Shown: piece after piece, positions 30,289 through 34,825 of the stretch
Position numbering within the stretch: position 1 is the first letter of the stretch
How the letters are laid out: each line of letters begins with the position of its first letter
Assembly (NCBI GenBank): GCA_965242965.1
Contig: OZ251518.1
Span: 3,520,001 to 3,584,000, forward strand
Direction: 5' to 3'
Length of the DNA stretch: 64,000 bases
Source: Candidatus Poribacteria bacterium
GTDB taxonomy: Bacteria > Poribacteria > WGA-4E > WGA-3G
Notes under the pieces: model-generated
What the model was told of the DNA's origin: nothing
Databases searched by the model: none
What the model saw: only the letters and a program-made list of their open reading frames with translations
Position numbers and translations under genes: made by a program

Positions 30289-30306
30289 AAGTGGCATTAC
30301 TCTTTA

Positions 30307-30738
30307 AGTATACCACAAAAAAACGCATTTGTCAAATTTATTTTTCAAAAAAACGGATTTGCTGACACAAACCCTCGCGATGGTATATAGTATACCACGA
30401 AAACTGCGCAATGTCAAATTAAAATCAAATTAAAATGACAATTTCGTCATCGTTGAGGTTAATTATACCACAAAAAAGATGCAATGTCAAATTAAAATGA
30501 CGATTTCTGCGAATTTCTGCTGAATTACGCCACAAAAAGTGCGCGATGTCAAATTAAAACGACAATTTCGTCATCGTTGAGGTTAATTATACCACAAAAA
30601 TGACGCAATGTCAAATTAAAATGACATTTTCTGCGGAATTCTTGTTAATTCTGCCCCAAAAAGTGCGCGATGTCAAATTAAAACGACAATTTCGTCATCG
30701 TTGAGGTTAATTATACCACAAAAATGACGCAATGTCAA
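30307..30738 (-). promoter_or_regulatory. Array of seven tandem sigma70-type promoters facing tRNA-Ala-23S-5S
   Basis: TTGACA-17bp-(-10) units. Plus-strand TGTCAA starts at 30330, 30412, 30485, 30547, 30609, 30671, 30733; the matching -10 boxes are TATACT, TATACT, TATAAT, CGTAAT, TATAAT, CAGAAT, TATAAT. Confidence 0.88.
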
Positions 30739-30740
30739 AT

Positions 30741-32696
30741 TTATTTAAAAAAAGTGCTCGTATCCCACAGCAGAATGGTGCCATCGAAACTGCCGCTCGC
30801 CAAAAGCGCGCCATCCGGCGAAAAGGCAAGAGACTGAATGTCAGTGGAATGTCCCCAGAAAGTGGCGATGTTCTCACCCGTTGCAACCTCCCAGAATCTG
30901 ATGGACATCTTATCCGTGCCTTGCCACGCTGCCCCCGATACGAGATACCTGCCACATGGCGAAAATGTCAACGCCTCCGGTCTTTGGCATCCTTGCGGCA
31001 GGCATATCACCATGAGCGTTTCATACCTTTTCGCGTCCCATAGCCAAATTTCCCGGAAAATTCCACCGGCAATCACGTTCCCGCATGGCGAAAATACAAC
31101 AGTCTTTGGAACAGCATTGTATTCTATCCGTTTAAGTGCGCGTTGAATTTGACGCGCATCGCCTTTATATTTCTCTAAATCTTTGGGACGGTGAGTGGAC
31201 AGTTCCGTGATGAGCCGCCAATCGTCAACATCCCAAAGGAACGCTTTCGTATAGGGAGACGCGACAGCGAGGGACTTTCCATCAGGCGAAAAAGCGATGT
31301 GCCAAATCCAATCCGATTTTCCGTTCAGCGTCTGTAGCGCGGTTCCGTTTTGTAAATCCCACTCTATCAGGCCGCCGCCACCATCTGCGCTCACTAATCG
31401 TTCCTCTGTTGGAGAGAACGCGACAGCATAAATCGGTTTTTCCTGATGTCCCGTTAACTTCGCAATCGGCGCGTCGGGTTTCTCAACGTCCCACACCCTG
31501 ACTATGCCATCGTAGGCACTGGCGGCGAGTTTGTTTCCACACGGCGAAAAACTGATTGAACGGATTGTCATCGGTTCTTCTGCGAAAACGACTTGCGGTT
31601 CTCGCCGCGCAACATCCCAAAAGATTATGTCTCCTATCCAATGGCCGGCAGCCAACTTTTTTCCATCTGGGGAGAATTTGACGCAGCCACAGACATAGGG
31701 ATGCTTCCGAATAAGGGCTTCGTGCGGCGTGGCCTCGCCGATATTCCACACCTGAATTGTGCGAGGACCGGCGATGGCCACGTGCGACTCTGTGGTTTGC
31801 GAAAAATGCGTGGCATGCGAAATTTCGCGCAGCTCTTTATGTTCCAACGCCGCTAATTTTTTGTTGCGTTCCATATCCCACACAATGAGCGTGGTGCCGC
31901 TGACCTCGGATGCGAGCAAAGTTCCCTTTGACGAATAAGCGAATCTCTTCCGGCCATTTGTCGAGGAGACGGTTGAAGGTTCTCCGGTTTCCGCGAGTCG
32001 GTTGACATCCCACTTCCGCAGCGTGCCCTCTCTGTCCGCTGTCGTCAGGAAAGTCCCGCACGGCGAGAAGAGCAGTGTTGTTACCGATGCCGTATGTCCG
32101 GTGAGACAAGCGATGCGTTCACCCGCTGTCAGATTCCAGACAGAAAAGGTGTTTTCAGCTGTCGCGCATGCGAGCAGAACGCCGTCCGGAGAAAAGGCGA
32201 TGGGAATCCTCGGAAGAGGCCCCTTTTTAGGGGTATCGTCAACGGGGAATTCCGCAAGCGGTTCTCCGGTTTCGGCGTGCCAGACGTAAACAGTATCGTA
32301 GCGGCCCCCGGAACACGCTAAGCGTTGTCCGTCGGCTGAAAAGGCGAGCCGAGATACCTTATTCGCCTGTTTCCGGGTTCGTTCCATTTTGGCGATGCGT
32401 TGTTGGCTTGGCATATCCCAGACGCTCACGCCACCGTCCACATTGCCGGTAGCAAGCAAATGCCCGTTCGGCGAAAATGTCACCGCAGAAACCCCGCGTT
32501 CGGTATCCCATAACGCGAACGGTTCCATCGTGGACACCTCGTAGAGCCAGAGCCCGATACCACTTCCGACGGCGAGAGTGTTCCTGTCTGGAGAGAATGC
32601 CAGTGCCCGCACCAACCCTCTGCCCAATCGTGCAATCGCGCCATCGGGGAGAATCCATGTGGTAATATCGCTATTTGCGCGATGCTGATTTTCCAC
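30741..32696 (-). CDS. WD40-repeat protein
   Basis: LPDGAIARLGRG N-terminus and many GH...FSPDG...WD repeats; GTG start after GGAGG. Confidence 0.9.
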   Translation of the reverse strand: MENQHRANSDITTWILPDGAIARLGRGLVRALAFSPDRNTLAVGSGIGLWLYEVSTMEPFALWDTERGVSAVTFSPNGHLLATGNVDGGVSVWDMPSQQRIAKMERTRKQANKVSRLAFSADGQRLACSGGRYDTVYVWHAETGEPLAEFPVDDTPKKGPLPRIPIAFSPDGVLLACATAENTFSVWNLTAGERIACLTGHTASVTTLLFSPCGTFLTTADREGTLRKWDVNRLAETGEPSTVSSTNGRKRFAYSSKGTLLASEVSGTTLIVWDMERNKKLAALEHKELREISHATHFSQTTESHVAIAGPRTIQVWNIGEATPHEALIRKHPYVCGCVKFSPDGKKLAAGHWIGDIIFWDVARREPQVVFAEEPMTIRSISFSPCGNKLAASAYDGIVRVWDVEKPDAPIAKLTGHQEKPIYAVAFSPTEERLVSADGGGGLIEWDLQNGTALQTLNGKSDWIWHIAFSPDGKSLAVASPYTKAFLWDVDDWRLITELSTHRPKDLEKYKGDARQIQRALKRIEYNAVPKTVVFSPCGNVIAGGIFREIWLWDAKRYETLMVICLPQGCQRPEALTFSPCGRYLVSGAAWQGTDKMSIRFWEVATGENIATFWGHSTDIQSLAFSPDGALLASGSFDGTILLWDTSTFFK

Positions 32697-32715
32697 GCGC
32701 GCCCTCCGCGTTTGT

Positions 32716-33549
32716 TTACGGGGTATACCCGCGTTTGACGTTTGCCCAAGTGGTTGCGAGTTTGTCAACCGCATCGACAGCAAAAGTGCCAGAGATGTTT
32801 TGGAGCACCTCTGCCTCGGTGAGTGCCTTATCATAAGCGCGGACGATGGCGAATGAACCGTTGAAAGTCCGCCGCCGTTCGTCGAAGGAATTCGCACCGA
32901 TGGAGATGTCATTTATCGGTAACGCCTTGTCAAACTCAAAACCGGCTTGGCTGCTGACTTCTTCGCCATCTTGATATGCGACAATCGACTTGTCGTTAGT
33001 GCCGACAATCGTAAGCCAGGTCCACACGCCTTCCTCAAGTTTGAGGTTAAGCGGTTGAACGCCCTGTTTCGCACCTTGCGCATGGACAGAGATGTCCAAG
33101 TTTTGCCCGTTGACTATCCACAGCCGAATTCCCTGTTTCCCTTCCCGCGGGCTGTTTTGGAACCCGGCGAAGTGGTGTTCCTCCACAAAGAAATCGCCGT
33201 TGCGTCGGCAAAGGAACTCAAGCGTCCAGTCCTCAAAAAAGAGAGGCGGATTTTTTGCCGGCGGACCGCCGAAGGTTTGATGGGAATCCTTGGTTGTGTA
33301 ATACTTCGCGTTCGGCAAGTCGATGCCGAGTGCAGGGATTTTGATTGGCCCTTCCTCAAGTTCGGGTGCTTCGTCCGCGGCGGGTAATTCGCCTTCAGCC
33401 GTGCCGAGGTTTGTCCACGCGTCTTTGTGGCCTGGATTATCAGCGGCATCGAGGTAAAGCACCGGGTCTGGAACGATATTAGCATTTGCGATGTTGCACG
33501 CGAGGGATAGGCAAAGTATCGTCGTGCAAAGTGAAATAAGTGTTCTCAT
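32716..33549 (-). CDS. Secreted LamG-like jelly-roll protein
   Basis: Signal peptide; LYLDAAD...FNGSFAIVRAYDKALT; tail FAVDAVDKLATTWANVK. Confidence 0.8.
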   Translation of the reverse strand: MRTLISLCTTILCLSLACNIANANIVPDPVLYLDAADNPGHKDAWTNLGTAEGELPAADEAPELEEGPIKIPALGIDLPNAKYYTTKDSHQTFGGPPAKNPPLFFEDWTLEFLCRRNGDFFVEEHHFAGFQNSPREGKQGIRLWIVNGQNLDISVHAQGAKQGVQPLNLKLEEGVWTWLTIVGTNDKSIVAYQDGEEVSSQAGFEFDKALPINDISIGANSFDERRRTFNGSFAIVRAYDKALTEAEVLQNISGTFAVDAVDKLATTWANVKRGYTP

Positions 33550-33644
33550 TTGAGTCTTCCTCCTAGGGTTTGGAAAATAGATATGCCTCCGTTTCTGCTT
33601 GAAAACTATTATAACAGCATTTCAACATTTATTCAAGAGATAAA

Positions 33645-34440
33645 ATAAGGGAATTTCATATTTCGATGTCTTTTTGGTAGGAGAGACCTCCCGGTCTCAA
33701 TTTGTCCGTAGCGCGGGGGCCTGTCCCCCGCGATCGCAGCATGGCGAGGGACAGGCCCTCGCCCTACGGTGCGGGGGGTGGCGTTTTCGCGATCGCTGCA
33801 TGGCCTACGATGAAGGGGGGAGGCGTTTTTTTTTCGTATCGCGGGGGGGCTCGGATGCCAGACGCGCATCCGGGCTGGTTTCCCCCGCGAGTTCCATCGT
33901 CATGATGTGTGTTTCCCTCTCTGTAGTTTGTGATCGCCTGATCACAAACAGGTTAGGATCAGGCAATCCTGACCTACAGGGCCTGGCGCGAGAACGATGA
34001 CGAGGGCCTGTCCCTCGCCATCGTTCGCGCTGCGGAAAAACCGTCTCTTGTTCTCTTCAGGTCCGTAGGACCTGAATGTCTATAGCAGCCGATACGCAAA
34101 ATGCTCTAAGGGCCTTTAGGTCCTTAATAGCTTTTGCCAGGGCCGCGTGTTTTCTTATTAAGGACCTAAAGGACCTTGACAACGGTACGACACGTTTTTC
34201 TATAGACATGTAGGTCCTAACGGACCTAAAACGCCACCTTGTGACGATGGAACAACGCGGGGGACAGGCCCCCGCGCTCCGGTAAAAAACGCCATCCCCT
34301 CACCGTAGGGCGGGGGCCTGTCCCTCGCCATCGTCCGCGCAATCCAATCCTCGCGGGGGACAGGCCCCGCGCTACGGATGCATCGAGACCAGGAGGTCTC
34401 TCCTACCGGGATGCATGGATACCCGGCGCGCCTACCGGCA
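33645..34440. repeat. Modular REP cluster inside the split rrn locus
   Basis: All module types are present. Confidence 0.85.
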
Positions 34441-34506
34441 ATTCCCCGTTTTTTGACTGTAGCTGAAGAAAACGCAATCGAAATCAGCAGCCATTGTGCA
34501 TGTCTC

Positions 34507-34677
34507 CTAGCGAGTGTTTTCTGTAACGGCCGAGGGATGTGGGCAGGTAACTTGCCCGGGTCTGTAATCACAATAACCTCTCCACCGGCATCCCTTCGTA
34601 ACTGTTTGAGTCTTTTGACACCGGCTTCGTTCTGAGGCAACGATGAGAACCAGGAGAAAAACGATAAAGGCTTTCAT
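34507..34677 (-). CDS. Putative 56-aa secreted peptide or gene remnant
   Basis: AAAAGGAG RBS, then MKAFIVFLLVLIVASERSRCQKTQTVTKGCRWRGYCDYRPGQVTCPHPSAVTENTR*. Confidence 0.4.
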   Translation of the reverse strand: MKAFIVFLLVLIVASERSRCQKTQTVTKGCRWRGYCDYRPGQVTCPHPSAVTENTR

Positions 34678-34825
34678 AAAACACTCCTTTTAAGAGCGAC
34701 GGGCCATCGGGCAATTTGAAAAAACGAGGGGACAACGAGTAGGAAAGAAGGTATCCGTTCAGAAAACAACGACGATTTGAAAAGGGACCTTCCTTGAAAA
34801 CCGCGCGATGTCAGTTTGATGTTGA

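Follow-up and report, generated by a model that had tools for sequence, protein, structure and literature searches.

Organization of the rRNA locus

The 64,000-nucleotide (nt) stretch of DNA analyzed here, referred to as the window, corresponds to positions 3,520,001 to 3,584,000 of contig OZ251518.1 of a Candidatus Poribacteria bacterium genome (GCA_965242965.1) and contains the ribosomal RNA (rRNA) locus of this organism, in which the genes for 16S and 23S rRNA are separated by several kilobases of DNA. The RNA genes were placed by Rfam and ARAGORN and are all on the minus strand of the 64-kb window, where the canonical order of 16S, tRNA-Ile, tRNA-Ala, 23S, and 5S has been retained (Table 1). 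The spacer transfer RNA (tRNA) genes tRNA-Ile and tRNA-Ala are usually only a few bases apart. Here, the gap between them comprises 4,536 nt (34825..30290), and the gap from 16S to 23S is 4,882 nt. As rRNA genes are considered unlinked when the 16S and 23S genes are more than 1,500 nt apart (Brewer et al., bioRxiv 10.1101/705046, later ISME J 2020), those of the window are unlinked by distance. Inside the gap are a small open reading frame (ORF), a cluster of repetitive extragenic palindrome (REP) and miniature inverted-repeat transposable element (MITE)-like sequences, a LamG gene, and a WD40 gene, the genes being oriented as the rRNA genes are. This picture had been drawn in a first-pass annotation of the DNA, and we could confirm both the order and coordinates of the split operon (Rfam and ARAGORN) and the contents and orientation of the gap (ORF calls, Pfam, and a repeat search).

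The most telling feature of the locus, absent from the first-pass annotation, is a tandem array of six predicted promoters before tRNA-Ala. These sites occupy the 452 nt between the stop codon of the WD40 gene (30741) and tRNA-Ala, five of them have a TG at the extended -10 position, and the first ones form a tandem repeat with a period of 62/124. There are 77 perfect TTGACA-14-TGnTATAAT sites in the whole genome, and the sole three located within 250 nt of each other are those of this array. The same A-B-A-B-A pattern is kept in G108, the sole other species of the genus in the sample (16S 98% identical). In a linked operon, promoters would be found only upstream of 16S, but in the window six promoter-like sites precede tRNA-Ala. 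The 16S leader has a single such site, and a site matching the consensus at 11/12 or 12/12 positions was found, one per leader, 148 to 200 nt before 16S in 18/18 loci. We infer that these consensus sites are active promoters.

Table 1. Features of the split rRNA locus, in the direction of transcription (positions are those of the window)
Feature	Position	Strand	Basis and remarks
16S promoter-like site	36706..36734	minus	TTGACA-17-TATAAT, 12/12; 178 nt before 16S
Leader boxA-like word GTTCTTTGAAA	36664..36674	minus	Also 5' arm of the 16S processing stem
16S rRNA	35006..36556	minus	Rfam; sole copy in the genome
3' arm of 16S processing stem CTATTTAACTTTCAAGAAC	34908..34926	minus	Stem closes ahead of tRNA-Ile
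tRNA-Ile(GAT)	34826..34899	minus	Rfam and ARAGORN; single copy in the genome
56-codon ORF	34507..34677	minus	AAGGAG Shine-Dalgarno sequence; hydrophobic N-terminus
REP/MITE-like repeat cluster	~34410..33676		Repeat search; ~730 nt
Promoter-like site before LamG	33608..33636	minus	TTGAAT-17-TATAAT with TG (extended -10), 10/12
LamG/concanavalin-like gene	32716..33549	minus	277 amino acids; PF13385, 48.7 bits versus cut-off 27.6, 1.1e-12
WD40 beta-propeller gene	30741..32696 (longest ORF from 32912)	minus	PF00400, 222 bits versus cut-off 27; six stretches
Promoter-like array before tRNA-Ala	30307..30738	minus	Six sites: three 12/12, two 11/12, one 10/12
Single sites of the array	30738-30710, 30676-30648 (weak), 30614-30586, 30490-30462, 30417-30389, 30335-30307	minus	
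Terminator-like hairpin with T7	30355..30374	minus	-9.3 kcal/mol; between fifth and sixth array sites
tRNA-Ala(TGC)	30214..30289	minus	Rfam and ARAGORN; single copy in the genome
Spacer boxA-like word GTTCTTTGACA	30176..30166	minus	Runs into 5' arm of the 23S stem
Spacer boxA-like word together with 5' arm of 23S processing stem (TTGACAATTGCATAGA)	30156..30176	minus	
23S rRNA	27127..30123	minus	Rfam; sole copy in the genome
3' arm of 23S processing stem TCTATGCAATTGTCAA	27075..27090	minus	
5S rRNA	26922..27038	minus	Rfam

A boxA-like word of the form G[TC]TCTTTGAAA was identified in 18/18 16S leaders. The spacer word GTTCTTTGACA occurs at most 160 nt past tRNA-Ala in 13 of the 17 family loci, and the remaining four loci have longer gaps between tRNA-Ala and 23S. 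A copy was also seen in G108. We take these words to resemble the boxA words of E. coli and Bacillus. As in Nus-factor (boxA) antitermination, the word is present in the leader as well as in the spacer; such a system would further involve NusB/NusE binding and transcription past terminators. The leader and trailer of 16S form a duplex of -69.5 kcal/mol (-35.9 +/- 4.8 kcal/mol with 200 shuffled trailers), and those of 23S form one of -59.9 kcal/mol (-25.9 +/- 3.7 kcal/mol, likewise with 200 shuffled trailers). Each half of the locus had been credited in the first-pass annotation with one or more promoters, a boxA-like word, and an intact processing stem, all of which were found, the promoters as consensus matches. 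However, in three outgroup loci with linked operons, each half likewise contains a boxA-like word and a stem. The boxA words and the stems are therefore canonical features and no mark of unlinking, and the internal promoters are the unusual part.

Integrity of the assembly

The genome consists of 5.70 Mb in two contigs and has exactly one 16S gene and one 23S gene, so that there are no two rRNA loci from which a mis-join could have been made. An assembly artefact, that is, the erroneous joining of two rRNA loci or of two strains, could be suspected from the short-read data, in which both the REP cluster and the promoter array (30466..30709) interrupt the metagenome contigs, as is expected for repeats, and in which none of the contigs from four runs covers the entire gap. 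Yet metagenome contigs from these 4 runs, which belong to 4 studies, match the gap genes at 92 to 100% identity and cross both tRNA junctions, from 16S/tRNA-Ile into the gap and from 23S/tRNA-Ala into the promoter array. In addition, the independently assembled G108 has the same architecture (16S, tRNA-Ile, 4,015 nt, tRNA-Ala, 23S) with an orthologous LamG gene and the promoter array, and the breakpoint is identical in all of the family loci that were fetched. An artefact is thus extremely improbable, and the mis-join that the first-pass annotation had named as fatal to its reading is excluded by the single 16S and 23S genes and by the layout of G108.

A graded series of gaps with one breakpoint

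The 16S gene was located in a sample of 121 Poribacteria genomes, the 5' end of 23S was found by BLAST with the first 824 nt of 23S, and the distances were tabulated. In four sister families, the genes are linked in all of the genomes having both on one contig (28/28; gaps of 316 to 518 nt). The window's own family is represented by 44 genomes with both genes on one contig and by seven more with the genes on separate contigs. Only one of the 44 has a gap of at most 1.5 kb (G033; 752 nt). Ten, including the window, have gaps of 2.0 to 18 kb with the canonical order and orientation, and in the other 33 the halves are dispersed, at distances of 28 kb up to several Mb, in reversed order (23S upstream of 16S), or on opposite strands. 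The gaps of the family thus run from 752 nt over 2.0, 3.9, 4.5, 4.5, 4.9, 7.8, 10, 11, 17, and 18 kb to 28 kb and up to several Mb, and the family does not have the one fixed arrangement in all relatives that, according to the first-pass annotation, would have spoken for an ancestral state.

At the sequence level, 16 relatives were compared by means of 26 regions; 13 of these relatives belong to the family, and 3 are outgroups. With the window included, there were 17 family loci. In every family locus fetched, tRNA-Ile is 3' of 16S and tRNA-Ala is 5' of 23S, so that the breakpoint is always between the two tRNA genes; also in the six dispersed genomes fetched, tRNA-Ile stays with 16S and tRNA-Ala with 23S. 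The 450 nt before tRNA-Ala contain 2 to 6 promoter-like sites in all 17 family loci, the -35 element nearest to tRNA-Ala being 42 to 50 nt from it. In the three outgroup spacers, the tRNA genes are 8 to 10 nt apart and no promoter-like site was found. G033 has only 394 nt between the tRNA genes, yet three 11/12 promoters are predicted inside them.

A 16S tree places the window's genus and that of G033 as sisters (support, 96/98), and a genus whose gap is 7.8 kb branches off next (93/98). All 5 genomes of this three-genus clade have the canonical order and orientation, with gaps of 0.75 to 17 kb. The members of a fourth genus cluster in a clade of their own, where gaps of 2.0, 10, and 11 kb and of 2.3 Mb occur among close relatives, and the placement of a fifth genus is not settled.

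A MITE-like element (inverted repeat AAGGTCCTTTAGGTCCTTAAT) flanks the 16S unit, with two tandem 288-nt copies upstream of the 16S promoter (37067..37568) and one copy downstream (34066..34219); these copies are possible substrates for rearrangements in the family. The locus might also be a reversal, in which halves already dispersed in the ancestor became neighbors once more in this genus. The same element on both sides of the unit could mediate recombination, the halves rearrange often in the family, and the LamG gene itself moved into the gap, all of which would suit such a history. However, the three-genus clade is canonical in all of its genomes, and it is improbable that the exact order of 16S, Ile, Ala, and 23S was rebuilt by chance on one strand. 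Secondary re-association is therefore very unlikely. The proposal of the first-pass annotation that the locus is an intermediate stage of unlinking stands as a comparative statement, based on the graded series with one breakpoint, but the genes in the gap are not a relic of the ancestral state, as the LamG gene is found elsewhere in other genera.

Some loci of the family have additional peculiarities. In 14 of the 23 genomes of one genus (g3), the 23S unit is 29 to 111 kb upstream of 16S on the same strand, a pattern suggesting that a half was transposed once in an ancestor and that inversions came later. In four g3 loci, tRNA-Ile lies 0.45 to 1.6 kb after 16S. In G061 (L007 2737-6840), 4.1 kb with three co-oriented ORFs of no assigned family separates 16S from tRNA-Ile, and this is the only locus stretched so far. 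G025 of the sister genus (L023/L024) has two identical 16S copies 6.4 kb apart, and a second tRNA-Ile(GAT) is located ~8.8 kb after the second of them, followed by the usual tRNA-Ile, tRNA-Ala, and 23S. The spacing between tRNA-Ala and 23S is 276 nt in G108 (L003 ~1200-1476) versus 90 nt in the window, and the extra stretch contains several TTGACA words and what seems to be a second copy of the 3' part of tRNA-Ala.

In G033, a tRNA-like gene follows each 136-nt promoter repeat in the stretch from tRNA-Ile to tRNA-Ala (L010 1446-1518 and 1582-1654, minus strand). Its score with the Rfam tRNA model is 48.5 bits (cut-off 29) with no ARAGORN call, its anticodon loop is CCAAAAA with no U at position 33, and there is a T-run behind it. 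Weaker tRNA-like elements are present at L026 2756-2828 and L024 5966-6026, and none of the G033 type reaches the Rfam gathering score in the 64-kb window.

Two probable adjacent transcription units

The sole rRNA locus of this genome probably works as two adjacent, co-oriented transcription units. The first would comprise one consensus promoter, the boxA-like leader, 16S within its own stem, and tRNA-Ile, and the second would comprise the six promoter-like sites, tRNA-Ala, the boxA-like word, 23S within its own stem, and 5S. Since tRNA-Ile(GAT) and tRNA-Ala(TGC) are both single-copy genes, both units must be expressed. The autonomy of the 23S half is supported by the densest cluster of perfect promoter sites in the genome and by the dispersed halves in 33/44 family genomes. 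The 4.5-kb gap between the units would tolerate insertions, the LamG gene having moved in from elsewhere in this genus and a WD40 paralogue having been set 19 nt behind it.

As to the order of events, we infer that the promoters came first. In a first step, promoters would have arisen between tRNA-Ile and tRNA-Ala while the gap was short, making the 23S half self-sufficient. Genes, insertion sequence (IS) elements, and tandem WD40 arrays could then have accumulated and turned over in the gap, and finally rearrangements could have dispersed the halves without functional loss. This order is supported by G033, with its three promoters in a short gap, versus the promoter-free outgroup spacers. Furthermore, the hairpin with T7 before the last promoter of the window resembles a hairpin with T8 directly after tRNA-Ile in G033, suggesting that the ancestral module was a terminator plus a promoter and that genes were inserted upstream of it.

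Several points weigh against two independent units or against the proposed history. All of the promoter calls are matches to a consensus that may not be that of the Poribacteria sigma factors. Five of the six array promoters lie upstream of the hairpin with T7, which would oppose them if it were an efficient terminator, and no convincing intrinsic terminator was found within 200 nt after tRNA-Ile in the window. One promoter for 16S versus six for 23S is hard to square with a 1:1 stoichiometry under full independence; many of the array sites may be weak or occluded, or read-through may contribute. The sequence-level comparison covers 17 of the 44 family genomes, and its four g3 loci (of 23) were picked by hand and not at random. 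The polarity of the series rests on parsimony because one genus lacks a settled place on the 16S tree.

Alternatively, the locus could be one long operon, in line with the read-through from the 16S promoter into the passenger genes that the first-pass annotation had inferred. Polymerase starting at the 16S promoter and modified at boxA would read from tRNA-Ile through the repeats, LamG, and WD40 to 5S, producing a precursor rRNA of ~10 kb as the main source of passenger gene expression, and the internal promoters would merely top up 23S. The lack of a convincing terminator after tRNA-Ile and the boxA-like word in the 16S leader are consistent with such an operon. The WD40 stop codon is 2 nt from the first -35 element of the array with no terminator between them, and the gaps of G017, G031, G075, and G061 have no promoter-like site of at least 10/12 before the passenger genes. 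The strand of the passenger genes points the same way: 30 of the 32 long gap ORFs in nine genomes are co-oriented with the rRNA genes, which is compatible with read-through or, at the least, with head-on transcription being costly, although these ORFs are not independent, as tandem duplicates share their orientation, and the count is without a strand-bias control. However, in both species of the genus LamG is preceded by a promoter-like site of its own, the path of the polymerase would include ~730 nt of REP/MITE hairpins as well as the hairpin with T7 ahead of the last array promoter, and the 23S half, which has the densest promoter cluster of the genome, works alone in most relatives. A single long operon is accordingly unlikely, and we favor two transcription units.

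Gap contents in the window

The predicted LamG protein has an N-terminus resembling a signal peptide, and the promoter-like site is 59 nt upstream of the ATG; G108 has an 11/12 site at the corresponding place. The longest WD40 ORF (start at 32912) overlaps LamG by 197 nt, and its relatives align only from residue 73 to 80 on. The true start is likely the GTG at 32696, which lies behind GGAGGG and 19 nt past the LamG stop. It is probable that LamG and WD40 constitute a bicistronic unit that has a promoter of its own. The genome encodes ~13 WD40 paralogues, with at most 42% identity to the gap copy.

The 56-codon ORF has no homologue in its own genome or among the fetched loci. When it was compared to G108, just the Shine-Dalgarno sequence and ~17 codons could be aligned, and in G108 that stretch precedes two overlapping ORFs, one of them FtsX-like. 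The 56-codon ORF is probably the 5' remnant of a longer gene. An overlapping ORF of 146 codons (34640..34200) was rejected as a gene, since it is a translation of REP repeats whose C-terminal half matches hundreds of REP sites (760 match lines for the 146-codon and 56-codon ORF queries together).

The REP sequence is a GC-rich palindrome with the core GGGACAGGCCC, of which there are 4,534 sites genome-wide, and the MITE-like core has 550 sites in the genome. Palindromic arms, high copy number, and clustering are all as in REP elements; restriction to intergenic DNA is part of their definition and not of this count. The repeat cluster has a very high summed depth in the metagenome contigs. With ~8 REP cores per 10 kb across the genome, the cluster was rejected as a feature specific to the gap and is considered ordinary intergenic filler.

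Outside the gap, an ORF beginning with MRYSIVLHKDPGSDYGV is located directly 3' of 5S (26540-26850, minus strand); presumably, it encodes a HicB-type antitoxin.

Turnover of the gap genes

The first-pass annotation had proposed comparing the spacer contents among Poribacteria. The contents turned out to be genus-specific and to differ in each of the nine genomes examined, with the two species of the window's genus already being different. While the window has LamG and WD40, the gap of G108 contains an FtsX-like ORF, LamG, two fragments as WD40 remnants, and a binding protein of the OpuAC type. A DDE transposase flanked by two ORFs of no known family is present in G017, G075 has one ORF of no known family, and G061 has two ABC-2 permeases. 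The other gaps contain WD40 genes, namely, one in G031, four each in G029 and G065, and about seven in G019. WD40 genes are also located directly behind tRNA-Ile in G030 and G040, in which the halves are dispersed. In G029, a 114-codon ORF before the tRNA-Ala promoter region (L008 1645-1989) has a weak match to sigma-70 region 2 (21.3 bits, under the cut-off of 24), and ORFs of 102 and 130 codons are found at the corresponding place in G031 and G065.

The gap LamG genes of the window and G108 are 93% identical, and the best-matching loci elsewhere are 72 to 84% identical to that of the window. In three other genera, LamG is a single-copy gene (77 to 84% identical) located 1.7 to 3.9 Mb from the rRNA genes in 5/5 genomes, and at E <= 1e-30 it was not found in four genomes of the fourth genus. 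In the window genome, orthologues of the genes that flank LamG in the other genera lie side by side. LamG therefore entered the gap alone, and it did so in the ancestor of the genus. DNA similarity around LamG extends to ~27 nt upstream of the ATG on one side and to the stop codon on the other, and the LamG loci L029-L074 have a different neighborhood in each genus examined. LamG behaves like a single-gene cassette that relocates by some mechanism.

That WD40 proteins are abundant in Poribacteria has already been published (PMC3909097). In a quick maximum likelihood tree of 30 WD40 proteins, the other genus is represented by 13 gap copies, which group in one clade with cross-species pairs (SH-aLRT, 99). 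The WD40 protein of the window is outside that clade, among the paralogues of its own genome, at a position that is not settled. The tree is without the non-gap paralogues of the other genus and without the partial WD40 ORFs of G030 and G040. A shared ancestry of the gap WD40 genes across the two genera is neither supported nor contradicted by this topology.

Comparison with other unlinked rRNA genes

The locus belongs to the known class of unlinked rRNA genes, in which each half has its own promoter and its own processing stem, as is predicted here from the sequence, and its value is the informative natural series around it. The two units resemble those of Thermus, Rickettsia/Wolbachia, Buchnera, and planctomycetes (Frigoriglobus) in being self-sufficient, each with a promoter and a stem, but the halves are distant in those organisms. 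Separate 16S and 23S-5S units were reportedly described by Liesack and Stackebrandt in 1989 and also in papers on Wolbachia and Anaplasma.

A similar layout is that of Borrelia burgdorferi, in which 16S and a tRNA gene are followed by a few kb with ORFs, a second tRNA gene, and 23S-5S, with separate transcription of the 16S and 23S parts. Both loci have protein genes in a gap of several kb between the spacer tRNA genes, whereas B. burgdorferi has another tRNA order and orientation and a duplicated 23S-5S. To our knowledge, neither a promoter array nor a family-wide series has been described for B. burgdorferi. Tandem promoters are familiar from P1-P2 of the E. coli rrn operons and from some mycobacteria, in which up to five promoters precede the single rrnA. 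Several strong promoters ~60 to 130 nt apart before a single-copy rRNA unit are shared with these systems, but the array of the window is located inside the operon, before tRNA-Ala and 23S, and 16S keeps one promoter.

With the unlinked genes surveyed by Brewer et al., the locus shares a distance above the limit, a single rRNA copy, a slow-growing or host-associated organism, and conservation of the trait in a lineage. However, most of the unlinked pairs in that survey are more than 6 kb apart (682/778), whereas the halves in the window are adjacent and co-oriented in the canonical order. A term search of the available text of the preprint (bioRxiv 10.1101/705046) found no mention of Poribacteria, and a graded series in one family, with a fixed breakpoint and promoters predating the insertion, was not met in that text. 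Unlinked rRNA genes occur in many phyla and are common in symbionts, and most of the genomes named above with distant halves are small, AT-rich, and from obligate symbionts (PMC7761764). In contrast, the genomes of the Poribacteria family are 4 to 7 Mb, with ~50% GC around the locus.

A search of the available papers (without supplements) found no paper on rRNA gene order, the breakpoint, or internal promoters in Poribacteria. Fieseler et al. reportedly noted an unlinked 16S gene on the first Poribacteria fosmid in 2006 (Environ Microbiol), in which case unlinking in this phylum has been published before; as a single fragment, that fosmid could not reveal the breakpoint, the promoters, or the series.

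Implications for operon break-up in Poribacteria

Unlinked rRNA genes are frequent among slow-growing and host-associated microbes, but the path by which an operon breaks up is rarely visible, as usually just the intact and the dispersed states are observed. Here, one family with many near-complete genomes, together with its sister families, spans that path, from tRNA genes 8 to 10 nt apart in the sister families over a 394-nt gap filled with promoters and gaps of 2 to 18 kb to distances of tens of kb to Mb. The hypothesis that internal promoters came first and permitted all of the later steps thereby becomes testable. For practical work, amplicon methods that span 16S, the internal transcribed spacer, and 23S will fail or mislead for these abundant sponge symbionts.

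A wider scenario, which we put forward tentatively and regard as possible though doubtful, would join promoter-first unlinking to a role of the gap as an expression site. Terminator-promoter modules, each of which may drive a tRNA-like gene in some genera, would have arisen between tRNA-Ile and tRNA-Ala in the ancestor of the family and would have freed the 23S half from the 16S promoter. The gap would then have become a protected, highly transcribed landing site, in which eukaryote-like WD40 genes could amplify (four species of a single genus have 1, 4, 4, and ~7 copies, and the window has one) and be expressed together with ribosome synthesis by read-through from the boxA-modified 16S complex. 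This raises the question of whether repeat proteins related to symbiosis, such as WD40 and LamG, may be driven by rRNA transcription in these bacteria.

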